A stretch of 64,000 nt of DNA from the IMG/VR virus record IMGVR_UViG_2885593961_000002, positions 14,432-78,431 of that record. One strand, written 5' to 3'. Both the position numbers and the translations under genes were made by a program. Source of the stretch: a virus (lineage: Duplodnaviria; Caudoviricetes). Positions within the stretch are counted from its first letter, which is position 1. Each line of letters starts with the position of its first letter. Shown here one piece after another: positions 9,255-53,441 of the stretch. The notes under the pieces were generated by a model, which saw only the letters and a list, made by a program, of their open reading frames with translations, was not told the origin of the DNA and did no database searches.

Positions 9255-9635
9255 TCAGGTACGGCCTCTCATCGACACGGGTAGCAATCCCGCAGCAATG
9301 AGATGGTTCAGGACGACAGCCGGCGTGGAGACCGGGAACGTCCTGACACATTCGCTGAGACCCAGTGCGATGGCATCGATGGCCTTTTTACGCACGGTCG
9401 CAGCTTCAGCTTCGCTGGGTCGCGGGAGGTAAGGCACGAGCGCGCGGCAGATCTGCTCGGCCCGCTCAATCAGCCCGTCCGTGATGTCGGTCTCGCTGAT
9501 GTCGCGATAAGCAAACGTGCTCACGACGGCTTCGACAGACGCCCGCTGATGGGCCTCTACTTCTTCCTTGCGCGATGCCAGTTCGCGCAGCAGACGCTCG
9601 TCGTCGTCCGTCCAGGTTGTGGTGGTGGTGGTCAT
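9255..9635 (-). CDS. hypothetical protein (126 aa)
   Basis: Starts MTTTTTTW. Confidence 0.7.
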   Translation of the reverse strand: MTTTTTTWTDDDERLLRELASRKEEVEAHQRASVEAVVSTFAYRDISETDITDGLIERAEQICRALVPYLPRPSEAEAATVRKKAIDAIALGLSECVRTFPVSTPAVVLNHLIAAGLLPVSMRGRT

Positions 9636-10090: not shown

Positions 10091-10801
10091 CTATACGATA
10101 GTCGGCACATCCCGTTCGGCCCAATGCCGACGCTCGACCTCCTCCCTTCTATTCGCTTCTTGTGAAGTTTTCACCTGAAAAATCAGGCTTTTTGCGCATT
10201 CGAGAGCGACTGTCACGTGGTAGTTCTTGTACGATTCGACGCCACCGACGCTGTCGCTGAAGCGCTCATCTTCAACGAGTTCCCCTTCATCGTTTTGACG
10301 GAGGAGAACCACCTTGACCCACGTGTATTCCCATTGGTCATTACACCATTGGCGCAGGAATTCGAAATCGCGGCGAACGGCTTCTGCGCGAATTTCACCA
10401 CTCGTTAAACGTTTGCTGGGATCTCTTCCAGGCGTTTCCACTGTTTCCCACTCAAGGCGAGGTACGCGCAGACCATTGACGACGTGATATTGGGCACGCT
10501 TTACACGACGCACGCGTTTTCCAGATAGCCGTTTGATCAATTCGGCTTGGTCTTCCTCGCTCAAACCCCATCCTTCATCCTTGGCGATCTGGTTGGATGC
10601 CGAGATGTCGTAATAGCGTCGCGAGGCACGATCGGATGCCAGCAAGACTTCGCCGGGCCGCTTGTCACGACGCGTCCAGTCCGACACCACGCCGTGGCCG
10701 TCATGGTGACTCCACGGCTCGCCGATATCGTCGTCTCGTTCGAACTGAGCCTTGAAGCTATATCCTTCAAGCTCGAAAGTTTCCCCGTTGTACAGGTGCA
10801 T
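10091..10801 (-). CDS. hypothetical phage early protein (236 aa)
   Basis: Long ORF in the early run; no assignable function. Confidence 0.75.
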   Translation of the reverse strand: MHLYNGETFELEGYSFKAQFERDDDIGEPWSHHDGHGVVSDWTRRDKRPGEVLLASDRASRRYYDISASNQIAKDEGWGLSEEDQAELIKRLSGKRVRRVKRAQYHVVNGLRVPRLEWETVETPGRDPSKRLTSGEIRAEAVRRDFEFLRQWCNDQWEYTWVKVVLLRQNDEGELVEDERFSDSVGGVESYKNYHVTVALECAKSLIFQVKTSQEANRREEVERRHWAERDVPTIV

Positions 10802-10808
10802 GGTGTAC

Positions 10809-11123
10809 CTACTTTGTGATCCCTGTTGCCTTTAACGCCTTCGGCCACCAGCGGCGCGCTCGGTCGTTAGCAGGATGCAGGGAGATGTTGCGGAAGGAGC
10901 CGTCGCGAAGATCGCGCTCCCCGTGAGAAGTGATCCAACCTGGGTTCGATGACGGGTAGTCGCTCGGTTCAGCCCCCGCATATTCGAAGCAGAGTAGGCG
11001 AACCAGCTCCTTGAACGTGTATGAAACGTCCTGCCAGTCGAAGCCCGTCTCGTCGACATCGCCCTGTTCAGCACTCTCGTCCGTGATGACCGCATAGGTC
11101 TGGTGGAATTTCATTGGTGTCAT
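10809..11123 (-). CDS. hypothetical protein (104 aa)
   Basis: Coupled to the upstream small gene. Confidence 0.7.
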   Translation of the reverse strand: MTPMKFHQTYAVITDESAEQGDVDETGFDWQDVSYTFKELVRLLCFEYAGAEPSDYPSSNPGWITSHGERDLRDGSFRNISLHPANDRARRWWPKALKATGITK

Positions 11124-11284
11124 ACGATGATCCTTGCCATTGCGCGGACGTCTGCATCCGACATGTCATGAAGCTGCTGCGTGACGAGGGAACGAAACGA
11201 TTCCTCGAAACCCACCTTGCGTGCACGCTCAACGGTCGCCGCTACGAGGTACGTCCGCAAAACTTGCGTATCAGACATGAACAT
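11120..11284 (-). CDS. small hypothetical protein (54 aa, absent from ORF track)
   Basis: Translated by hand: MFMSDTQVLRTYLVAATVERARKVGFEESFRSLVTQQLHDMSDADVRAMARIIV; AAGGATC RBS; ATGA overlap with the next gene. Confidence 0.65.
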   Translation of the reverse strand: MFMSDTQVLRTYLVAATVERARKVGFEESFRSLVTQQLHDMSDADVRAMARIIV

Positions 11285-11314
11285 GTACAGATCCTTTTGT
11301 GCTGAATTGAGAAA

Positions 11315-11343
11315 ATAAAAAAGCCCACCGAGTGGCGGGCTTT
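11315..11343 (-). terminator. intrinsic terminator after the lipoprotein gene
   Basis: Minus strand AAAGCCCGCCACTCGGTGGGCTTTTTTATTTT. Confidence 0.75.
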
Positions 11344-11370
11344 GAACATGGTTTCGCGACTAGACGTCGC

Positions 11371-11784
11371 TCATTCAAGGGCAGGTTGCAACAACACCCC
11401 GCTCGCAGAATCGAGGCGGTATGTTCTGTATCGACTTGGAACGTTGATCAGGATGGACTGTGGCTCAACACTTGTCCACACGCCATTACGCGCCGAAAGC
11501 ATGTGCTCGCCAGTGGGGAGGAATAGATCGACGCGCTCATCGGTCGCCATTGATGCGATCTTCACACCATCGGCCAACAGTTCGTAGCGCGCACCCCCAC
11601 CCGAGATAAACGAGCCCCCAGTGCGTATAACCGTGATCTTCTGCGCACCTTCCACCGGTTGCGCATACTTCGTCGAATAGATCCTGTCCGCAGGAACGTC
11701 CTTTGCCTGCTCAAATGGAAGAGTTCTAGACGCACACGCCGTCAAACACCCCGTAAGAGCCATGCAGAGAATCACCTTGTTCAC
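11371..11784 (-). CDS. lipoprotein (moron-like, possible superinfection exclusion)
   Basis: Signal peptide with lipobox LTAC; own terminator; exclusion role is inference. Confidence 0.75.
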   Translation of the reverse strand: MNKVILCMALTGCLTACASRTLPFEQAKDVPADRIYSTKYAQPVEGAQKITVIRTGGSFISGGGARYELLADGVKIASMATDERVDLFLPTGEHMLSARNGVWTSVEPQSILINVPSRYRTYRLDSASGVLLQPALE

Positions 11785-11828
11785 TTCCGCCCTCTTTGTC
11801 TATAAAAGGACTAGAAGTATGCCCTACC

Positions 11829-12587
11829 TCAGTCGAGGAGGTCGCGCGCAATCTGGTGGATGACGCCATCCATGTAGATGACTTGCCCGGTTGTGCAGCG
11901 TCCCCAAACGATCAGACCGCAAATATCGCGATTGACCATCTCACCCTGCTCTTCGAGTTTGCTCGCCAGCCAACCGGAGACGATCCAGTGCTCGTAGGCT
12001 TCGCGTGTGTGCGGGCTGATACTGTTCGATTCGCATGCCGCGCGCCACGCTTCTTGTTCGTCGTTGTACCAGTCGTCGACGTAGTGCTTATTGAGGTAGG
12101 AGGTCAATACCGCATGTTCGGTATCTGCCTCGAAGAACATGCCATCGGTCTCACCGCCGTCGTCGCGAGCCTTCGCGGTCGCGATGATTGCGCTGATCTT
12201 CGCCTGATCGGGCGCATCCAGTTCTTTGATCTCGTCGACCGCTTCTTCCGGAAGGACATAGAACTTCCCGGCGTGTTCGAAGTAACCGAGGTTGTCGAGA
12301 GTGAGATTCCCCTTCACATCGTCTTCCGGCTGAAGTGCGACGTACTCTCCATATTCGTTCTCGAACAGCACGTAGTCTTCGTCTTCAGCTGCGGACTTAT
12401 AGTCGTCCTGCACGCAGATGCCGATCAGTTCATCTTGATCGATACTTACCTCACGCAGTAGGCCGGGGTCGGCACCAGCGACGAGCGTGCTGAGGTCGCT
12501 GATTAACATGCTGACACACGCATGCACTTCTTCGCGGACGAGCTGGCGCGCGCGCTCGTCGAGCGCGGACTTGTCAATATTGGTCAT
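11829..12587 (-). CDS. hypothetical acidic protein (252 aa)
   Basis: C-terminal EHWIVSGWLASKLEEQGE...WGRCTTGQ looks like a recurring phage early-protein motif. Confidence 0.75.
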   Translation of the reverse strand: MTNIDKSALDERARQLVREEVHACVSMLISDLSTLVAGADPGLLREVSIDQDELIGICVQDDYKSAAEDEDYVLFENEYGEYVALQPEDDVKGNLTLDNLGYFEHAGKFYVLPEEAVDEIKELDAPDQAKISAIIATAKARDDGGETDGMFFEADTEHAVLTSYLNKHYVDDWYNDEQEAWRAACESNSISPHTREAYEHWIVSGWLASKLEEQGEMVNRDICGLIVWGRCTTGQVIYMDGVIHQIARDLLD

Positions 12588-12661
12588 CGTTGTGGTGGTG
12601 GATTGTTAGCGTTTCGGTGAACGAGGGTCGTGGCCAGACGCGCCTCGTTCAACTTGAACTT

Positions 12662-12892
12662 TCAAATGGCAGCTGCCATCGACGCTTGCGCTTCGCGCTG
12701 GTATTGGCGATCGTCCTCAGAGACATGTGCCGCCAAGCGTGTTTCGCGTGCTTCGAGCTTCGCGACTTCCGCCTGGAAATGTTCCAGTGCGCCGCGCGCT
12801 TCGAGCAGCGCGAGGCGCGTCATGCGCAATTGGTTCTTCGCTTCCTTAGCAGGCGACTTTCCCGTGAACATCGTGATGATTGCACTCAACAT
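12662..12892 (-). CDS. small coiled-coil protein
   Basis: GAGGT RBS before MLSAII; heptad-like LEARGALEHFQAEVAKLEARE. Confidence 0.7.
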   Translation of the reverse strand: MLSAIITMFTGKSPAKEAKNQLRMTRLALLEARGALEHFQAEVAKLEARETRLAAHVSEDDRQYQREAQASMAAAI

Positions 12893-12914
12893 GGTGGTTA
12901 CCTCGGTGTGGTGG

Positions 12915-13187
12915 TTATGCTTTCCGCTCGATACAGAGGAGGTAGCGAATCTCCCCAACGCGCGTTGCCATAACTGCTGTGAAAAGGTTTGTACTGAACT
13001 TCGAGTCGCGCATTTCCGCCGGCCTGCGGCTGGCAGGGGTATTGATGGTCCGCATCAACTGCGGATAGCCCTCAACAGTCGTCTCTATGTAGTGCCGTTC
13101 GCCTACTTCCATCATGGATAGCATTTCGTTCCATGATCCGGCTCTTACTCCGTAGGACTTTCGAGGACTAACGTCCGTCTTTTTCAT
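12915..13187 (-). CDS. hypothetical protein (90 aa)
   Basis: Abuts neighbours. Confidence 0.65.
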   Translation of the reverse strand: MKKTDVSPRKSYGVRAGSWNEMLSMMEVGERHYIETTVEGYPQLMRTINTPASRRPAEMRDSKFSTNLFTAVMATRVGEIRYLLCIERKA

Positions 13188-13190
13188 CTT

Positions 13191-13868
13191 CTACCCCTGG
13201 TGAATCAATCCGTCGTCACCGATGTATAGCTCTCGGCTTCCCGCCTGACGTGCTGCGTCGGATAGCTGGTCACGCAAGTCGCGCGGTAGTTGGCGGCGAT
13301 CCCAATAGCCAGCACCGTGGCCAGCTCGCGTGAGCCAGAAATCATGCCCCGCCTCGACCGCCTTGTAGCCGTTGCAATCAATTGCACGACGCAACTGCGG
13401 CTCGGCGAAGTCACAGAAATTCTTGCAGTCTTCGCGGAACTTCGTTTTCGCCTCTTCGTGCAGTTCGTAGCCATCGTCGAGATGCACCGTCTCCTCCTCC
13501 CCCTCTTCGTTCTTAATCGTGTCGATGCTCGACCACAGTGCGGCTTCTTCGTAGCCTGCCAAGAATTCTTCAAACCAGCGTTCGCGCGGTGTTTCGATGA
13601 TTTCCGCGTTTGGATACAGCTCACGAACGTCTTCCAGTACCTCCCAGCGGTCTTTGCTGCGCAGGAAGAATTCCACATCCCCATCGGGTTCGATAGCCCG
13701 CCACAGCGGCTCCCCCGCTCCCCAGTACGCCCCACCTTCGTCGTAGGCGCCGTCGACAAAGGGACAGTGGTGGACGACAAGTTTTATGGCAGCATCGTGG
13801 TCACCGTGGTGCGCGAGCCGGCCCATTGGAGCGCCGCGCGAGCCGTCCAGTTGCGACAGTGGTCTCAT
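13191..13868 (-). CDS. hypothetical two-domain phage protein
   Basis: N-half GAPMGR...YDEGGAYWG; C-half AGHDFWLTRAGHGAGYWDR. Confidence 0.75.
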   Translation of the reverse strand: MRPLSQLDGSRGAPMGRLAHHGDHDAAIKLVVHHCPFVDGAYDEGGAYWGAGEPLWRAIEPDGDVEFFLRSKDRWEVLEDVRELYPNAEIIETPRERWFEEFLAGYEEAALWSSIDTIKNEEGEEETVHLDDGYELHEEAKTKFREDCKNFCDFAEPQLRRAIDCNGYKAVEAGHDFWLTRAGHGAGYWDRRQLPRDLRDQLSDAARQAGSRELYIGDDGLIHQG

Positions 13869-14050
13869 ATTGGCTTCGTCCCCAGTTCGCGCTTACAGAG
13901 GCGCGTCATTGCGTTCATGAAGTCGGTCACCGAGTCCCGCTCCGTGACCTCTTTCGCGATCTCCGTGACGACGCCAAGTTCGACAGCGCGGTGCATGGCG
14001 TCACGTAGTTCGATCAGCGAGGTGAACTGGGCCGCAGTTAGCATCTTCAT
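13865..14050 (-). CDS. hypothetical protein (61 aa)
   Basis: 4-bp overlaps on both sides. Confidence 0.65.
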   Translation of the reverse strand: MKMLTAAQFTSLIELRDAMHRAVELGVVTEIAKEVTERDSVTDFMNAMTRLCKRELGTKPI

Positions 14051-14541
14051 ACGGCCTCCGCGAGTTCATCTGGCAGTTCGATCTCGGCCCCGCAGATCTC
14101 GGCCACGTAGCAGCGCATCGCGGCGATGAGCGCGGTCGGGCCGTACGTCAGGCTTGCCACGTAAAACTGATACATTGCGTCATGCTGCTGATGCTCGGTC
14201 GATTCTGACCAGGTTTGCTGTCCGCGCTCGGCGCACCATACCGGGATACGGACATTGTTGGTGTAGCCTTGCGCATCCCTGCCCCAGTCGTCATCGCTGC
14301 GAATGATGCTGATACCCTCGCGCTCAACGATCTCGAACCCTTGGACGCGATCGGTCGACGGGCTGAAGCGGTGGTAATGCGGAGCCGAGCCAGGGGAATT
14401 CTCGCGCTCGATCCACGCGGGAGTTGTCGCCTCCATGCGGCAGATCTTCACCACGCGGGCTTCCTTGAACTGCGTCTCGAGCGCCGCGGAGACTGCCCAG
14501 TCGAGCGCCGCGCCCTTGAGTTCTTTTGTTTTGATCTTCAT
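14047..14541 (-). CDS. NinX / DUF2591 family protein
   Basis: ELKGAALDWAV...FSPSTD..QG..IVEREGISI...GPTALIAAMRCYV. Confidence 0.85.
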   Translation of the reverse strand: MKIKTKELKGAALDWAVSAALETQFKEARVVKICRMEATTPAWIERENSPGSAPHYHRFSPSTDRVQGFEIVEREGISIIRSDDDWGRDAQGYTNNVRIPVWCAERGQQTWSESTEHQQHDAMYQFYVASLTYGPTALIAAMRCYVAEICGAEIELPDELAEAV

Positions 14542-14544
14542 GGG

Positions 14545-15126
14545 TTATCCGATATCCTTCACTCGTGCGATAACGTGATTGCGGACGGCGTCCGGAAGAT
14601 CGACGAATCGAATCAACTTTCCCAGGTACGCCCCCGGTTGCTGGCCCTTCGGCAACTCTCCCCACATGCTGACGCCAGTATTCGGCGAGGATGGGGAAAT
14701 GTTGAAGCCGAGATACGCGCGTCGAGTGGCATCGTCTTTGTCGTCACTCATCCAGTACGGGAACACGGTGTATCGGTCGTTGTCCTGCGGCCCAGAGTCG
14801 TACGTCAACCAGCTCTCCTGCTCGACGGCGAGCAGCGCTTCGTTGATCGTGGGTAAGGTGTGTGCGTCACCGAATCCGCTTGCCTTGGAGACCTCCTCGA
14901 CGAAACCCTGCGCCGTTCGCAATGCCTCGACCAGCTTCTGGTGGGTGTTGACTGCAACGGTGATCGCATGCGCGTCGAGAAACGGCATCGCGAAAAAGCC
15001 GCTCTCGGTGTAGCAAACCGTGTCGCCTTCAGCGTCAACAACACGCTCAACTCGATCGGCAAAGTCCGCTCGATCCTCTTGCGACAAGTATTCGCTTGCC
15101 ATTTCAATGCGAATCGGAAGCTTCAC
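14545..15126 (-). CDS. hypothetical protein (193 aa)
   Basis: Packed leftward ORF. Confidence 0.7.
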   Translation of the reverse strand: MKLPIRIEMASEYLSQEDRADFADRVERVVDAEGDTVCYTESGFFAMPFLDAHAITVAVNTHQKLVEALRTAQGFVEEVSKASGFGDAHTLPTINEALLAVEQESWLTYDSGPQDNDRYTVFPYWMSDDKDDATRRAYLGFNISPSSPNTGVSMWGELPKGQQPGAYLGKLIRFVDLPDAVRNHVIARVKDIG

Positions 15127-15473
15127 GATTTGCCCCCCCGCAGAACTGCCAGCGCCTCGTTGTAGCGCTTACGCTCGGGGGCATACTCCTCGTATGGTCC
15201 CTCGTAGCGTTCCTTGATCTCCGACATCGCCCAGGTGAATTGCTGCTCCAGTTGCCAGACGCGGTAGCGCAGTTGCTCCTTGTCGGCTTCTTCACGCGTC
15301 AGCGTGTGCAGCAGCAACTCAGCCTCTTCCTTCTTCAGCAGTTCGTCGCTGTAGCGGCCACCGACCTTCGCGCGGGAGATGACGTAACGCGGCGGCTCGT
15401 CGACACGTTGCAGGGTCTCGATCGTGAACGGGTACGGGGTGAAGTAACGGACGGGTTCTTTCATGATCACCAC
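15123..15473 (-). CDS. hypothetical protein (116 aa)
   Basis: Overlaps neighbours. Confidence 0.7.
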   Translation of the reverse strand: MVIMKEPVRYFTPYPFTIETLQRVDEPPRYVISRAKVGGRYSDELLKKEEAELLLHTLTREEADKEQLRYRVWQLEQQFTWAMSEIKERYEGPYEEYAPERKRYNEALAVLRGGKS

Positions 15474-16132
15474 CGTTGAATGTCAGCGCCGCTCAAACCG
15501 AGCGCGTTGCACTTCTCTCGGATGAACGAGAGGACATCGTTCAGGGTCTTCATTGCAGGCATGGTCTCGCGGCAGAAGTCAGTGCCGTCACTACCCTTGA
15601 AGACGATCTGCCACTTCACACCAACGTAGTGGAAGGTGTTCTCGGCGAGCGCACGGTTGTAGCTATGCGTGACCTTGATCGGTCTCGGCGGAGGCGGCTC
15701 AGGACGCTTCACGGAATCGATCAGCTCAGCGATTTTCCGATTCGCGAACTCGTCGACATCACCGATGTAGTTTTGCTTTTCGTCCTCGCTGCGGGATTCC
15801 CATTCGACGTCGAATTCGTCGGCCCATGCCTTCACGAGATCGCACAAACCGCGCGAACCGTCATGGTGGTCCATGATGTCGCCAGTGAGCTGGTCGGAGA
15901 ACGTGTGCCAGCGGTTGCCCAGCGTGAACGAAAGGTCGAAGAGGATCTCCTGCTTGCGGAGGAGCGCCGGATGTTCGTTCACCGCGTCACGGATGTAGAT
16001 GGCATGCTCCTGCGTCTGCGGTGTCTTATCGAACTCACAGATCACCTGCTCACCCACTTCTTTCAGCAGCAACCCGACGCCTTTATGATCGGACTCGGAC
16101 AGGATTAGAGAGGTTTTGAACGGGCTGCTCAT
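15467..16132 (-). CDS. hypothetical protein (221 aa)
   Basis: Overlaps neighbours. Confidence 0.7.
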   Translation of the reverse strand: MSSPFKTSLILSESDHKGVGLLLKEVGEQVICEFDKTPQTQEHAIYIRDAVNEHPALLRKQEILFDLSFTLGNRWHTFSDQLTGDIMDHHDGSRGLCDLVKAWADEFDVEWESRSEDEKQNYIGDVDEFANRKIAELIDSVKRPEPPPPRPIKVTHSYNRALAENTFHYVGVKWQIVFKGSDGTDFCRETMPAMKTLNDVLSFIREKCNALGLSGADIQRW

Positions 16133-16593
16133 TTCAGCGCCTCCCGCCCCAGTGCCAGGACCGCTTGAGCGTTCGCGATCATCTGCGGATTCGCAAGCCA
16201 GTCGTCCTGCCAGTCGTCGATCGAGAGCATGCTTTCAAGCGCGTCGACCAGTTGCTTGGTGAGCGCGAGATTGTCTGCTGGCGCGATTCCCCCGAATTGG
16301 TTCAGGTTGAACCATTCGACGCGGCCCGCCTTGGTGACGATCGCCATCTTGTCTTCCTTGATGACGATCTTGCCTGCTTCAGTTGCCCCCTGCTCAGCCA
16401 GCTGGGCCATCTTTTTGCCCAGGATCGATTCGCGTTCTTTTCTGAAGTGGTCATTGATCTGATCCACCTTCTTGGCGAGGCTGAACAGCTCCGCTTCAGC
16501 GTGCTTCTTGCCTTCTTCGGTGCCATCGCGCAACGAGGCGACGAGCACGCCCATGACGCCCGACCAAGCCGGGGTCAATACGATAGTTTTCAT
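16129..16593 (-). CDS. hypothetical protein
   Basis: Start trimmed to MKTIVL, preceded by CACCACCACAC. Confidence 0.65.
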   Translation of the reverse strand: MKTIVLTPAWSGVMGVLVASLRDGTEEGKKHAEAELFSLAKKVDQINDHFRKERESILGKKMAQLAEQGATEAGKIVIKEDKMAIVTKAGRVEWFNLNQFGGIAPADNLALTKQLVDALESMLSIDDWQDDWLANPQMIANAQAVLALGREALK

Positions 16594-47832: not shown

Positions 47833-50800
47833 ATGATTGTCGAAGAAGAACGCCCTATCCAGAGCATCCGTGGCGCGAGCGGCGGTGGCTCCAGCTCGCC
47901 CACGCGAACGGACGACAACCTGTTTTCCCGAGACGTCGTCGAGATCGTCCTTGGACTTTCTCAAGGCCCGATTCGAGGACTGGTCGACGGCATGAAGACC
48001 TTCTACGTCGGCGGGACGCCTCTCATGTCGCAGGACGGATCGCTGAACTTCAGCTCGTTCAATCTCGGCGTCAAGCTCGGCACCGCGCACGACTCTCCGG
48101 TCAACTACGTCCTTGGGGGCGAAAGCTCGAACACCCAGGTCGGCACGCGGCTATTTCAAGGGACGTGGGTCAACCGACAGACCGACCAGTCGTTGAAAGG
48201 CGTGATCGACCAACTGCAAGTACGAATGCAGTTCAATGTCCTCTACGTTCAGAACAACGACGGCTCCTTCAACAACACGGCGCGCTTCCGAATCCAGTAT
48301 CGTCCAGCGTCCAGCTACGCCGCGTGGTCAGAGGTTCAGGGCGGATTGATCAAGGTTACCGGCAAGACCACGAGCGGCTACATGGTCGACTACTCGTGGG
48401 ACGTACCTCGTATCAACGACAACTGGGTAATTCGGGTACTGAAGGAGAATCCGGACGCCAGTACGACGGAGTTCTGCGACCTGACCTGGGAAAGCTTCCA
48501 GATGGTCACGAAAGGGAACCGCTCGTACAACCAAGTCGCGCTCCTGCATCTGGTCGCCAAGGCGACGAGCCAGTTCAGCTCGATCCCCGACTTCGCTGGC
48601 ATCTACGACGGGCTGGAAATCCTCGTGCCGACGAACTACAACGGCGACATGCACTCGTACGACGCGAGCGGCCCGTGGAACGGGACATTCAAGCTCGCGT
48701 GGACGAACAACCCGGCGTGGATTCTGTACAACCTCATCATGAACCCCACATGGGGTCTCGCGAAATATTACCCGTGGATCACCTGCAACCGCTTCGATTT
48801 CTATGATGCGGGGCGCTGGTGTGACGAGATGGTCCCTGACGGTCGCGGTGGCTGGCAACCGCGCTACACTTTCAACCTCGCTCTGACCGACCAGCAGACC
48901 GGCCTTGACATGCTGCGATACGTCGCCGGCAGCTTTGGTGCGGTCATCTTCGACGACGCAACAGGCATGGTTCACCTCCGCGTCGACAAGTGGGAAGAAC
49001 CTACCTTGATGTTCACGCCCGAGAACGTGACGCCGGAAGGCTTCAGCTACACGTTCACGGACATGTCGACACGCTACAACGACTACGAGGTCCAGTTCGT
49101 CAACCCTGACATTGACTGGAACGTCGACCATCGGCGTGTCCCATATGACGAGCACATCGCGCTCAACGGCAGCATTCCCTATCAGTTTCAGGCGATCGGC
49201 TGCACGAACGAGCACGAAGCCGTTCGCCGCGCCACTTATCAGCTGATCACGTCGACCACTGAGTGTGCGACCGTATCGTTCATGACCGCGCGCCTTGGCC
49301 GCGTCATCGACCCTTACAAGCCGATCTACGTCGCCGACCCGATCACCGGCTGGTCGTCGGGCGGTCGCATTAAGTCCATCTTCAACAACAAGATCTATCT
49401 GCGCGACCCGGTCTACTTTACGATCAACCAAAACTACAACCTTCGGCTTCAGTCTGTCGACGGATTGTGGAACCTCGTCGTGAACCCCGGCAAGACCGGG
49501 GCCGTGACTGAGTTGACGATCGTGAGCGGCGTCATTCCGCCGAACATTCCGGATCGCACGGTTTTCACGATCGAGGACAACGGTGGATTTGGGATTGCGA
49601 AACCCTTTCGTACGATCGCGATCGAGCCAGTTGACAATCAACCTGACACCTACAAGGTTACGGCTGTCGAGGTCAACGTCAACAAGCAAGCAGCAGCGGA
49701 CAACTGCGTGCCGATCGGCAGCAAGCAGTATTCGTTCAAAAACCCGCTGATCCCACCCCCGCCGACGAACATGGTCATGGCCTCCGGGACGGAGCAACTG
49801 ATCATCGGTCAGGACGGCTCGATTCAAGCGCGCATCCTCGTATCGTGGGACCCACCTGCAAACGCGATCGTCAAGCGCTACGACGTGCAGTGGAAAGAGA
49901 GTTCTCAGTCGACATGGCTCACTGCGAGCACGACGGGTGAAAGCATTTTCCTCGGCCCTTGCAAGAGCGGCGTCGACTACGACATCACGGTGTGGGCAAT
50001 TAGCACGTTCGACTACCGCAGCTCGCAACTGTCCGCGTGGAACTATCGATGCGTCGGTAAGGATGATCCGCCGAGCAACGTGACGAACTTCAACGTGATC
50101 CGTCGTCAGAACGACATTCTGCTGAAGTGGGACCCCATCCCTGATCTCGACCGCGCTGGTTATGAGATCCGCCTTGGCACATCGTGGGAGACCGGAACTG
50201 TTCTCGTGACCGACTACGCAGCGACGCAGTTCGCATGGACGACGGATACAGGGGGGGCATACTCCTTCATGATCCGAGCCATCGACACGAGCCACAACTT
50301 CTCGCCGATTCCGACGATCCAGACCATCGCGTTGTATGGTCCCTCCTCCGTGCGCGGCGTCATCGCTGTTCAGTCGGCGAACCGGATTGAGATGAGCTGG
50401 AAGCCGAACCCGGAAGACAACATCCTCGACTACGAGATCCGTGAAGGCGACACCTGGGCCACTGCGGTGTTCGTAGCGAAGACGAAATCTACAAGCTTTG
50501 GTCTTACAGCCGGCGCAGGTGGTACGCGCAAGTTCTGGCTGAAGTCGATCGCCGCGCCGGGCATCTATTCGGACAAGGCAACGTTCGTCACGACCGACGT
50601 CGCGCAACTCGACAACACAAACATTGTGTACGAGTCGGACGAACTGTCGAAAGGTTTCACCGGCATGCGGTACAACATGGTGGTCTACGGCGACTCTCTG
50701 CGGATGGACGACGGCAAAGCGAAGGCTGAGTACATTTTCAGCGTGTCGCTTCCGACGAGCTTCCGCGCGCAGAATACGCTCTTCATCGGTCTCGATGCGA

Positions 50801-51438
50801 TTGTCGACTTCACTATGCGCTGGAAGGATGCAACCTTCCCGTGGGACGACGCCAAGGCACAGATGCCGTGGGCTGCGGAGGGCGACATCTCGTCGATCAA
50901 CTACCGCGCCGAGATTGCAACACTCTCGGCTCTACCCGCCGACGTTCTTTATGCGATCAAGCTCGACAACACACTGGGTTTCTCCGGCCCCGGTGAGGAT
51001 GGGGCGGTCTCCGAGCAACAGACGGTTAGCTACCGCGCTGGGAAGTACGGGTCGGGCCTTTTCGTGCAAACCGCACCGCTCCAACCGGTCCCGACTCGCG
51101 TCACCTTCGACGTCAATGTCCCGAACGTGTTCTCGACGAGCTTTTGGGTCATCCCGTACGACAACAACGACGACACATGGTCTAGCTTCTGCGGGAGAAA
51201 TGGCGCGCAAATCACGATCGGCTATCAAGCATCGACGATGAGTGTCTACGCGATCGACAACAACGGCAAAAAGATCTCCATCCCGATCGATCTTGAAATA
51301 GGCGAACGCTATTTCGTCGCGATTTCGCAGGACACGAACACGCGCACATTGTATGTCGGCCGCGAAGGTGGATCGATATTCCGTGGGACCCTCAACGTCC
51401 AGGGTATCGGCCAAACTATCAACTACAGTCTGTACTGA
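47833..51438 (+). CDS. central tail tip / host-specificity protein (lambda gpJ-like) with Fn3 and C-terminal LamG-like domains
   Basis: LSQGPIRGL, WTNNPAWILY, PRYTFN, IGCTNEHEAVR, Fn3 repeats LKWDP / MSWKPN. Confidence 0.9.
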   Translation: MIVEEERPIQSIRGASGGGSSSPTRTDDNLFSRDVVEIVLGLSQGPIRGLVDGMKTFYVGGTPLMSQDGSLNFSSFNLGVKLGTAHDSPVNYVLGGESSNTQVGTRLFQGTWVNRQTDQSLKGVIDQLQVRMQFNVLYVQNNDGSFNNTARFRIQYRPASSYAAWSEVQGGLIKVTGKTTSGYMVDYSWDVPRINDNWVIRVLKENPDASTTEFCDLTWESFQMVTKGNRSYNQVALLHLVAKATSQFSSIPDFAGIYDGLEILVPTNYNGDMHSYDASGPWNGTFKLAWTNNPAWILYNLIMNPTWGLAKYYPWITCNRFDFYDAGRWCDEMVPDGRGGWQPRYTFNLALTDQQTGLDMLRYVAGSFGAVIFDDATGMVHLRVDKWEEPTLMFTPENVTPEGFSYTFTDMSTRYNDYEVQFVNPDIDWNVDHRRVPYDEHIALNGSIPYQFQAIGCTNEHEAVRRATYQLITSTTECATVSFMTARLGRVIDPYKPIYVADPITGWSSGGRIKSIFNNKIYLRDPVYFTINQNYNLRLQSVDGLWNLVVNPGKTGAVTELTIVSGVIPPNIPDRTVFTIEDNGGFGIAKPFRTIAIEPVDNQPDTYKVTAVEVNVNKQAAADNCVPIGSKQYSFKNPLIPPPPTNMVMASGTEQLIIGQDGSIQARILVSWDPPANAIVKRYDVQWKESSQSTWLTASTTGESIFLGPCKSGVDYDITVWAISTFDYRSSQLSAWNYRCVGKDDPPSNVTNFNVIRRQNDILLKWDPIPDLDRAGYEIRLGTSWETGTVLVTDYAATQFAWTTDTGGAYSFMIRAIDTSHNFSPIPTIQTIALYGPSSVRGVIAVQSANRIEMSWKPNPEDNILDYEIREGDTWATAVFVAKTKSTSFGLTAGAGGTRKFWLKSIAAPGIYSDKATFVTTDVAQLDNTNIVYESDELSKGFTGMRYNMVVYGDSLRMDDGKAKAEYIFSVSLPTSFRAQNTLFIGLDAIVDFTMRWKDATFPWDDAKAQMPWAAEGDISSINYRAEIATLSALPADVLYAIKLDNTLGFSGPGEDGAVSEQQTVSYRAGKYGSGLFVQTAPLQPVPTRVTFDVNVPNVFSTSFWVIPYDNNDDTWSSFCGRNGAQITIGYQASTMSVYAIDNNGKKISIPIDLEIGERYFVAISQDTNTRTLYVGREGGSIFRGTLNVQGIGQTINYSLY

Positions 51439-51936: not shown

Positions 51937-51962
51937 TCGGTTTGCTAACGGACACCACCACG

Positions 51963-53441
51963 ATGCAGAACTACACACAGATTCCGGAAAGTCAGCGAGT
52001 CTCCGACTCGCTGGCTCCGCTGCTCAACAACGACCTCACAGCGATCTCGCGCAACGCTGGCGACTCATTTCCGATCAACGGTCTTCAGATCGGCATGCCG
52101 TACCTGAGCACGTCGCAGAACAAGCTTTTCCGCCTTGCGAGCCTGACTCCGGTCACGTGGGTGGTCGAGATCGACTACAACCGTACGATCGCCTACCAAG
52201 ATTCGATCGACGCGCTCTCAGCAGCAATTGGCACGCGCGTCTTGAAGAGCGGCGACAACATGACTGGTCCGCTCACCCTCTCCGGAGACCCATCCCAGGC
52301 GTTGCATGCCGCGCCAAAGCGGTACGTTGACGCGCAGGCGCAGGCAGCGACTACCGCAGCGAACAACCGCGTGTTGCGCTCGGGCGACCAGATGAACGGC
52401 CCCCTGACGCTTTCGGGCGACCCGTCACAGCCCTACCACGCCGCGACGAAAAACTACGCCGACTACCTCTACAACTCGCTGAATAACGCCAAGCTCGGCC
52501 GCAACGGCGACACGGTGGCCGAGCTGTATAACAACGGCTGGTTCCGTTCGAACGGTCAGGTAGGCTGGTACAACCAGACGTACGGCGGCGGCATCCACAT
52601 GACTGACAGCAGCTACGTGCGGGTGTATGGAGGCAAAGGGTTCGCGACCGACACACACACGCTCGAACAAGGCACGGGTGGAATCTGGACCTCGCGCTAC
52701 GGGTGGCTGGAAAACTGCTTTGCCGGCAAAGGTGCAGAAGATCGACTCAATTCGGTCGGCACGCTCGACGGTGGCGACGGATGGCGCCCCGGTGGCTGGC
52801 CGTGGGTGCCCAACGGCGTGATCGCGCCTCAGTCCTTCTACCTCCAGCGATCCGGCAATCAGGTCCAGCTCGTCCGTGTTTGGGGCAACTGCAACTGCAA
52901 CTGTGCATGCACGTGCTTCCCAGCCGGCACTCGAATCATGATGGCTGACCGGAGTTGGAAGTACGTCGAACAGATCGAGATTGGCGACATTGTCATGACG
53001 CCGCTTGGGCCGGAAGCCGTGCTCGACGTCGAGACGCCGCTGCTGGGCGATCGAAAGATGATCTCGTTCGAGGATCGTTCATTCTTCTGGACCGACGATC
53101 ACGCGTTTTGGACGCGCCGCGACGGCGTGCAGGCGTTTGGCGTGGTAGACAAACAGTCGTGGTTGCGAGGCGTCGAGACGGGTGTAGTGAAAGGCCTGCC
53201 GAACAATGACGACGTTCGCGTTCTGGATGACCGATGGGATGAGTTCGCCCACATCAACGGCTGGCAACGCAAGCGAGTGGTCGAACACGACATGAATCCC
53301 AACACGAAGGTCTATCTGCCAATCGTCGGCGGATGCCACATGATCATCGCCGAAGGATACGTCGTCTCGGCCGGCGCAAACGGATTCGACTTCGATTACA
53401 ACACTTTCGAATGGAAAGGACTCAGCCATGTTGGTGCATAA
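51963..53441 (+). CDS. tail fibre with Cys-rich NCNCNCACT segment and C-terminal Hint (intein-like) domain
   Basis: Two GDxMxGPLTLSGDP...HAAxKxYxD repeats; WFRS.G..GWY..TYGGGI.M.D...VR fibre segment; CFPAGTRIMMAD...VEQIEIGDIV...TDDHAFW...VYLPIVGGCHMIIAEGYVV. Confidence 0.85.
   Translation: MQNYTQIPESQRVSDSLAPLLNNDLTAISRNAGDSFPINGLQIGMPYLSTSQNKLFRLASLTPVTWVVEIDYNRTIAYQDSIDALSAAIGTRVLKSGDNMTGPLTLSGDPSQALHAAPKRYVDAQAQAATTAANNRVLRSGDQMNGPLTLSGDPSQPYHAATKNYADYLYNSLNNAKLGRNGDTVAELYNNGWFRSNGQVGWYNQTYGGGIHMTDSSYVRVYGGKGFATDTHTLEQGTGGIWTSRYGWLENCFAGKGAEDRLNSVGTLDGGDGWRPGGWPWVPNGVIAPQSFYLQRSGNQVQLVRVWGNCNCNCACTCFPAGTRIMMADRSWKYVEQIEIGDIVMTPLGPEAVLDVETPLLGDRKMISFEDRSFFWTDDHAFWTRRDGVQAFGVVDKQSWLRGVETGVVKGLPNNDDVRVLDDRWDEFAHINGWQRKRVVEHDMNPNTKVYLPIVGGCHMIIAEGYVVSAGANGFDFDYNTFEWKGLSHVGA

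Follow-up and report, generated by a model that had tools for sequence, protein, structure and literature searches.

The stretch of DNA analysed here, a window of 64,000 nucleotides (positions 14,432 to 78,431 of the IMG/VR record IMGVR_UViG_2885593961_000002), makes up most of a 78.4-kb provirus record, and its relatives are Achromobacter phage JWF and phage 2-1, with about 50% protein identity. Near-identical annotated proteins occur in Burkholderia territorii and B. ubonensis, and the provirus is a JWF-like one of Burkholderia. A J-like central fibre gene (47833-51438) and then a small lectin-like gene lie upstream of the tail-fibre gene with which we are concerned (Table 1). Its start codon was assigned at 51963 because homologues of the fibre begin MQNYTQIP; ACCACCAC is found at 51951-51962, immediately 5' of the fibre ATG (GGACACCACCACGATG), and the stop codon is at 53439-53441. 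The N-terminal two thirds of the protein contain two GDxMTGPLTLSGDPSQ repeats, which match a tail-fibre PHROG, and a Shufflon_N-like GWYNQTYGGG module spans residues 175-231. Towards the C-terminus, a run of alternating cysteines, here called the Cys-Asn ladder, directly precedes a Hint domain formed by the last 175 residues of the fibre, which opens with the Cys codon of CFPAGT at 52914-52916 (residue 318). An earlier note on this DNA described the domain as a Hint set up for N-terminal cleavage only, and the positions and motifs that it quoted match the sequence exactly.

Table 1. Features of the fibre locus, in window coordinates.
Feature	Position	Strand	Remarks
Tail-fibre gene, 492 aa, 54.3 kDa	51963..53441	+	N-terminal anchor, repeats, Shufflon_N-like module, tip region, Cys-Asn ladder, Hint
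Predicted mature fibre, residues 1-317, 34.4 kDa	51963..52913	+	inferred from the Hint-less orthologues P0025 and P0027
Cys-Asn ladder NCNCNCACT, residues 309-317	52887..52913	+	abuts the Hint; C310, N311, C312, C314 and C316 invariant in 25 homologues
Predicted scissile bond Thr317-Cys318	52911..52916	+	Cys1 in 120/120; residue -1 is T/S/C in 110/119; intein residue 1 pairs with Cys318
Hint core, domain residues 1-153	52914..53372	+	family-specific insertion with helix and EFAHxxGW motif
Block B TDDH (family consensus S-E-E-H)	53091..53102	+	S/T 117/120, H 119/120
Block-G equivalent EGYVVSA	53352..53372	+	Ser-Ala at the intein His-Asn position
C-terminal extension of 22 residues (GANGFDFDYNTFEW...), domain residues 154-175	53373..53438	+	conserved, confidently modelled
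Accessory protein, 236 aa	53428..54138	+	start overlaps the fibre stop codon
Radical-SAM/SPASM enzyme, 450 aa	54135..55487	+	CNYSCEYC cluster motif (CxxxCxxC); context for the fibre tip

Searches of the fibre with Pfam, PHROGs and NCBIfam gave only sub-threshold matches to block A for the Hint. The Pfam model Hom_end_hint scored 24.5-26.4 bits against a cut-off of 32.1 and covered only domain residues 1-32, and the Pfam models Vint and Hint_2 scored below it. Because these matches of the library hidden Markov models were sub-threshold and limited to the first 30 or so residues, a fold prediction was needed for the Hint call. An AlphaFold (AF2) model of window positions 52875-53438 reached a predicted local distance difference test score (pLDDT) of 92.7 and a predicted template modelling score of 0.89. 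Foldseek returned 49 matches in the PDB at E ≤ 1e-3, and all among the matches listed were Hint domains; the best was BIL2 of Tetrahymena BUBL1 (6y75; E 1e-8), followed by the gp41-1 intein, the DnaB and RecA inteins, Hedgehog (1at0), the C. thermocellum bacterial intein-like (BIL) domain and Vint. VIA-align superimposed the model on BIL2 (6y75) with a Z score of 18.5 and a root-mean-square deviation of 2.0 Å over 139 residues, and gave Z scores of 12-15 for about 50 other structures, among them inteins, Hedgehog 1at0 and the C. thermocellum BIL (2lwy). A search with the 175-aa domain against 1.84 billion representatives, with clusters at 50% identity, identified a family of 757 clusters at E ≤ 1e-3, of which 217 remained at E ≤ 1e-10; 50 of the relatives were aligned, and a profile of the family matched intein block A of PI-SceI with an E-value of 5e-10, far from a chance match. 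By both Foldseek and VIA-align the predicted structure is that of a Hint, and at the level of the model we take the C-terminal domain of the fibre as confirmed to have a true Hint fold, as the earlier note had claimed; the refuting outcome named there, a predicted structure without a Hint fold, did not arise. No current Pfam model covers the family above threshold.

Which catalytic steps remain possible was assessed from the structural alignments and from conservation counts in an alignment of 119 C-terminal family domains plus the query, 120 sequences in all. In many of the structural alignments residue 1 of the intein paired with model residue 14, which is Cys318, the invariant Cys1 of the domain. 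Phe2 (116/120) and Trp66 (117/120) are also strongly conserved, as are S/T60 (117/120) and His63 (119/120) of block B. The last intein residue, an Asn, paired with model residue 166, which is domain Ala153; this position is occupied by A, G, S or T in 118 of the 120 sequences and by Asn in none, and the preceding one, position 152, where inteins have His, by G, S, T or A. At the position of the F-block Asp, which was placed by motif alignment and not by a structural residue map, the domain has Leu135 in VYLP (in the family L in 65, F in 10, S in 8 and H in 7), and His142 of block F is not conserved in the family. No C-extein starting with Cys, Ser or Thr was found; position 154 is mostly Gly and is followed by a conserved tail, with D161 in 100, Y162 in 108 and W167 in 111 of the 120 sequences. 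Domain residues 154-175 correspond to model residues 167-188; model residues 161-180 have a mean pLDDT of 97, and for 181-188 it is 80. Because D161, Y162 and W167 are conserved and the region is confidently modelled, the 22-residue tail is part of the domain and not a C-extein. The lack of the terminal His-Asn of splicing inteins, pointed out in the earlier note, is borne out by the Ser-Ala at this position and by the family; its count of about 20 further residues is close, since 18 follow VVSAGANG up to the end of the fibre, but they belong to the domain.

By sequence and model, the domain retains the parts required for the N-S acyl shift and lacks every later element of splicing. Because Cys1 and the TxxH motif are strongly selected and the residues for branch formation and Asn cyclisation are absent, alignment and model together support N-terminal cleavage only. 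One further feature of the family lies just upstream of the domain: at -1 relative to Cys1, 110 of 119 representatives (92%) have Thr, Ser or Cys, with or without a ladder. We know of no Hint family with such a constraint, which may bear on how the thioester is resolved.

That the Hint is removed is suggested by comparison with related fibres. From Cupriavidus prophages come two orthologous fibres of 305 aa, P0025 and P0027, which can be aligned over the full length of the fibre at 48% identity and have no Hint. They end NCNCNCNCANN and NCNCNCNCSNN, three residues past the last ladder Cys, where Cys318 aligns, and their loci show the same tail and lysis context, with an orthologous radical S-adenosylmethionine (radical-SAM) gene downstream (50% identity). 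To widen the comparison, 42 viral loci were fetched via the downstream radical-SAM gene (35-96% identity) and all open reading frames (ORFs) were scanned for (Cys-x)3Cys. Such runs were found in 40 of 3108 ORFs, as against 2 of 550 in this window. Among the 40, the ladder lies no more than six residues from the stop codon in 27 and directly before a Hint in 12, the last being a chance match on the minus strand. The Hints that follow ladders belong to three lineages, namely the JWF type, that of loci L039-41, and a divergent Hint_2-like form in L014 which is also without His-Asn. From the 27 and 12 of 40 ladder ORFs it follows that a ladder either forms the encoded C-terminus or carries a Hint cap placed so that it can cut at precisely that point. 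In five other proteins (P0061, P0090, P0103, P0107 and P0114) the GWYNQTYGGG fibre module is followed by a C-terminal Peptidase_S74, and in a jumbo-phage locus (L057) an S74 fibre adjoins a Hint fibre. These comparisons show evolution treating the Hint as an optional add-on beyond what would be the functional C-terminus. The removable, S74-like module put forward in the earlier note thereby gains comparative support, from the Hint-less orthologues, from ladders that are either terminal or Hint-capped and from the occurrence of S74 after the same module; the cleavage itself is predicted.

On balance, and with moderate confidence, we read the C-terminal 175 residues of the fibre as a Hint pro-domain that removes itself and would cut at Thr317-Cys318. 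After folding of the fibre, Cys318, assisted by Thr377 and His380, would attack the carbonyl of Thr317 to form a thioester, which water, possibly activated by E62, R47, D54 or E86, would then resolve. The 19.9-kDa Hint would leave, and a 34.4-kDa fibre ending ...CNCNCACT would stay (both masses were computed). The resulting tip would be a free Cys-Asn C-terminus such as most related phages encode directly, and the Hint would serve as a temporary C-terminal cap, or as a folding or solubility aid, discarded before or during assembly. Because its removal would leave a C-terminus that related phages encode directly, the Hint may play a role like that of Peptidase_S74.

Peptidase_S74 (PF13884), the intramolecular chaperone domain of endosialidases and tail fibres, is likewise a C-terminal, self-cleaving and discarded fibre module found in the same position after GWYNQTYGGG. 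It uses a Ser-Lys dyad and is a trimeric chaperone. Its fold and chemistry are unrelated to those of the Hint and a search of the fibre protein with PF13884 gave no match, so that the two would be analogues and not homologues. Among Hint domains, the C-terminal Hint of Hedgehog (HhC, 1at0; Z 13.6) resembles that of the fibre in structure, and it performs only the N-S acyl shift before it is discarded. In Hedgehog, moreover, Gly stands at -1, a region for sterol recognition comes after the Hint, and cholesterol is activated by an Asp. No counterpart of these is evident in the fibre, in which 22 residues follow the core, and the Pfam Hint model PF01079 did not match the fibre protein. Splicing inteins (PI-SceI/VMA, gp41-1, DnaB) share the fold and blocks A and B with the fibre Hint, which unlike them has no His-Asn, F-block Asp, +1 nucleophile, C-extein or endonuclease. 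The closest likeness is to BIL2 of BUBL1 (6y75/6tmm) and to the C. thermocellum BIL (2lwy), with Z scores of 18.5 and 15.3: both have the Hint fold, Cys1 and the block-B His, and both autoprocess their host protein and are not mobile inteins. BIL2 has a terminal Asn (it was crystallised as N143A), lies between two ubiquitin-like domains and passes its N-extein to a lysine (PMC8616854). The fibre Hint, in contrast, has no such Asn and nothing downstream; it is 18% identical to BIL2, carries the family insertion and the 22-residue tail, and sits in a phage fibre.

The tip that the Hint would expose can be related to the two genes that follow. The enzyme encoded by the second scores above the cut-off of the generic SPASM domain model, and all its other NCBIfam scores are far below cut-off. 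The best of these far sub-threshold matches are to thioether-forming maturases (PapB, QhpD, the geopeptide maturase and anSME), and PapB gives the only near full-length alignment. NxxcB, a maturase that forms Cys-to-Asn β-thioethers, tolerates Ala, Gln and Asp as acceptors (PMC9389541), and the residues found between the ladder cysteines in the loci are those that NxxcB accepts. Among the loci whose upstream sequence reached 3.4 kb or more, an ORF with a full (Cys-x)3Cys run was found in all except L016, L017 and L045, and L017 has a shorter C-terminal run. Two ladder-and-Hint fibres on unrelated backbones (P0170 and P0142) also have radical-SAM orthologues downstream; the orthologue alignments gave 47% identity in L055 and an E-value of 4e-64 in L049. 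Conversely, no radical-SAM gene was found within 5-8 kb of the ladder-less Hint fibres in L053 and L057; in these neighbour look-ups from the Hint side, the contigs L048, L051, L052 and L054 were too short to be informative. In the loci compared it is the ladder, not the Hint, that tracks the radical-SAM/SPASM gene, and the ladder is probably the substrate of the enzyme encoded two genes downstream. A role of the ladder in the Hint mechanism was rejected, given that only 30 of 119 family members have a (Cys-x)2Cys run within 25 residues upstream of the Hint and the other 89 (75%) have no ladder; dependence of the radical-SAM gene on the Hint was rejected as well, as Hint-less ladder loci keep the gene. 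The arrangement resembles the NxxcB/NxxcA and PapB-type thioether systems for ribosomally synthesised and post-translationally modified peptides (RiPPs), in which a SPASM radical-SAM enzyme adjoins a Cys/Asn-rich substrate, but the putative substrate here is a virion fibre and not a small peptide.

The accessory protein encoded between the fibre and the enzyme was modelled with a pLDDT of 85 as a β-rich N-domain and a helical C-domain. Searches gave no family match, no Atlas match and no meaningful fold match in the PDB or BFVD. Homologues occur in the Hint-less ladder loci L018 and L022 as well, and by this distribution the accessory protein goes with the ladder rather than with the Hint. Two metagenomic loci carry several radical-SAM genes. 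In L058, a ladder-less Hint fibre is followed by a separate 67-aa ORF (9395-9598) ending CNCNCNCNC and then by three radical-SAM genes (10524-16537), one of which (15188-16534) is an orthologue of the enzyme in the window. In L050 (5939-11946), the 812-aa ladder-and-Hint fibre P0241 is followed by a gene resembling major facilitator superfamily transporters and by four radical-SAM genes in a row.

Several observations weigh against removal of the Hint by simple hydrolysis or against a role like that of S74. Hint domains are normally monomeric and S74 chaperones work as trimers, so that a true chaperone role for the Hint would be an analogy only. The Hint-less Cupriavidus locus has two extra genes in place of one accessory gene, and because of this difference in gene content the Hint and Hint-less forms may not be fully equivalent; the two genes, of 272 and 279 aa, are unrelated to the 236-aa accessory protein and showed no family match. 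Simple hydrolysis would leave the strong preference for T, S or C at -1 unexplained, and in BIL2, the nearest relative by structure, the thioester goes to a lysine and not to water (PMC8616854). It is conceivable, if rather unlikely, that the thioester is used for chemistry at the fibre tip or that firing of the Hint is coupled to maturation of the ladder by the radical-SAM enzyme. Cys1 might be kept silent by free ladder thiols or a bound metal for as long as the ladder is not cross-linked, or a ladder thiol or a lysine could trap the activated Thr, Ser or Cys carboxyl, locking the trimer. If true, this would be a checkpoint of intein origin that times itself while a virion protein is stapled by an enzyme.

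Capture of the thioester could also be the very function of the domain. The Hint would then ligate the C-terminus of the fibre to one of several acceptors: a lysine in a neighbouring fibre chain or in another tail protein, a small nucleophile, or a thiol of the ladder, which would give a thiolactone. Hedgehog with its cholesterol and BIL2 with its lysine would be parallels. The isopeptide that BIL2, the best structural match, makes from its N-extein (PMC8616854), the Cys at -2 in the JWF group and the T/S/C residue at -1 in 92% of the family, a hint of specific chemistry at the acyl carbon, would all fit. However, a plain C-terminus is encoded directly in the Hint-less orthologues and in most fibres linked to a radical-SAM gene, so that no ligation seems to be needed for a working ladder tip; moreover, 75% of the family have no nearby Cys, the spacing from the last ladder Cys to Cys1 varies (-2 to -5), and only the conserved 22-residue tail, with no acceptor domain or region like that for sterol recognition, follows the Hint. 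We regard capture as unlikely, though it is the alternative to which we would turn first. Attack on the thioester by a neighbouring Cys and conjugation of a small molecule, both raised in the earlier note, are neither supported nor refuted, the former in view of the same spacing and of the ladder-less majority. A Hint that stays on the virion as a distal knob, a binding or latch domain that cleaves on a trigger such as metal, redox or receptor, or never, is a more doubtful proposition. The insertion with its helix and EFAHxxGW motif and the conserved tail could form a binding surface; Zn gates the activity of BIL2 (PMC8616854), and the ladder beside Cys1 could bind a metal. Yet the insertion and the tail stay conserved where the N-terminal parts are unrelated and the hosts presumably differ, whereas receptor-binding tips diversify; the catalytic residues are nearly invariant, and the Hint-less orthologues work without the domain.

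The Hint might instead be a self-removing follower peptide, a recognition handle by which the radical-SAM enzyme or the accessory protein is offered the ladder and which then excises itself, in place of the leader protease of RiPP systems. The fibre, accessory and radical-SAM genes overlap in this window and look translationally coupled, and P0170 and P0142 precede radical-SAM orthologues in spite of their unrelated backbones. Against this, 27 of 39 radical-SAM-linked ladders are without a Hint, 89 of 119 Hint fibres are without a ladder, L053 and L057 have no radical-SAM gene within the distance given above, and the accessory protein also occurs in Hint-less loci. This makes a follower peptide improbable in our view. 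Very little speaks for a decayed intein or the remnant of a selfish element with no function for the phage. Block A is similar to that of homing-endonuclease-associated Hints, but there is no endonuclease, C-extein or splice junction, the domain is always C-terminal, and the residues of blocks A and B and the family-specific motifs are strongly conserved across the 757 clusters; we consider this explanation most improbable. The self-removing pro-domain is thus the reading that we retain.

The distribution of the family was examined in its 150 best representatives. In nearly all of them the Hint sits at the very C-terminus of its carrier protein, with a median of 10 residues beyond the end of the alignment. 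The carriers are 179-2584 aa long, and their N-terminal parts match many different tail-fibre, tail-collar and tail PHROGs and the domains Collar, Collagen, Phage_Tail_Tip and GpJ. Among 50,697 records, the only cultured phages with the Hint were JWF, phage 2-1 and Providencia phage PSTNGR1; it is widespread in metagenomes and almost absent from cultured phages. The fold and its chemistry are known already, and the annotators of JWF had noted the match, naming the gene a 'Hom_end-associated Hint family protein'. A literature search retrieved no paper that deals with tail fibres bearing Hint or BIL domains or with fibres modified by radical-SAM enzymes, and no account of a large N-cleavage-only Hint family at fibre C-termini or of its alternation with S74 or free Cys-Asn ends. 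Two candidate precedents were set aside: the 'Hint' of phiCbK is an ordinary TerL intein, and the 'cysteine-rich' regions of Pam3 are disulfide anchors.

To our knowledge, Peptidase_S74 chaperones and a few special cases are the only self-cleaving C-terminal modules known on phage fibres, and the fibre Hint points to a second, unrelated solution to self-cleaving fibre caps. If the Hint is removed, the mature receptor-binding protein would be about 175 residues shorter than its gene, which would change how such fibres are annotated and engineered. Removal would also define the true C-terminus of a Cys-Asn ladder that is accompanied by a dedicated radical-SAM enzyme, and this end matters for testing whether phages chemically staple their fibre tips. 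A Cys-to-Ala mutant, together with the expected shift from 54 to 34 plus 20 kDa, offers a direct and cheap experimental handle.

The family search also brought up related domains and neighbours of other kinds. A minority of the matches are giant proteins of up to 4119 aa with three to five related Hint units in tandem (P0124-P0126, P0179, P0185, P0249, P0258, P0265 and P0267). The tandem units close with His-Asn, after which comes a Cys (as in ..LVHNKGGGS, then CF); here a related Hint is used in another way, as a repeat. Small genes resembling PanD (Pfam Asp_decarbox) lie directly 3' of Hint fibres in three unrelated metagenomic phages, at L049:2946-3425 (E 3e-30), L055:3234-3602 (E 4e-23) and L057:9605-9982 (listed without a mark of weakness); one of these loci is without a Cys ladder and radical-SAM gene, and no PanD-like gene was found in this window. 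In the T7-like Providencia phage PSTNGR1, a Hint of the same type (31% identity) ends a 317-aa protein (L003:4563-5516). The gene directly follows a 631-aa unannotated gene in a late-gene block, and SWSVS stands before CF in place of a ladder. PSTNGR1 would be a convenient experimental model for the Hint.

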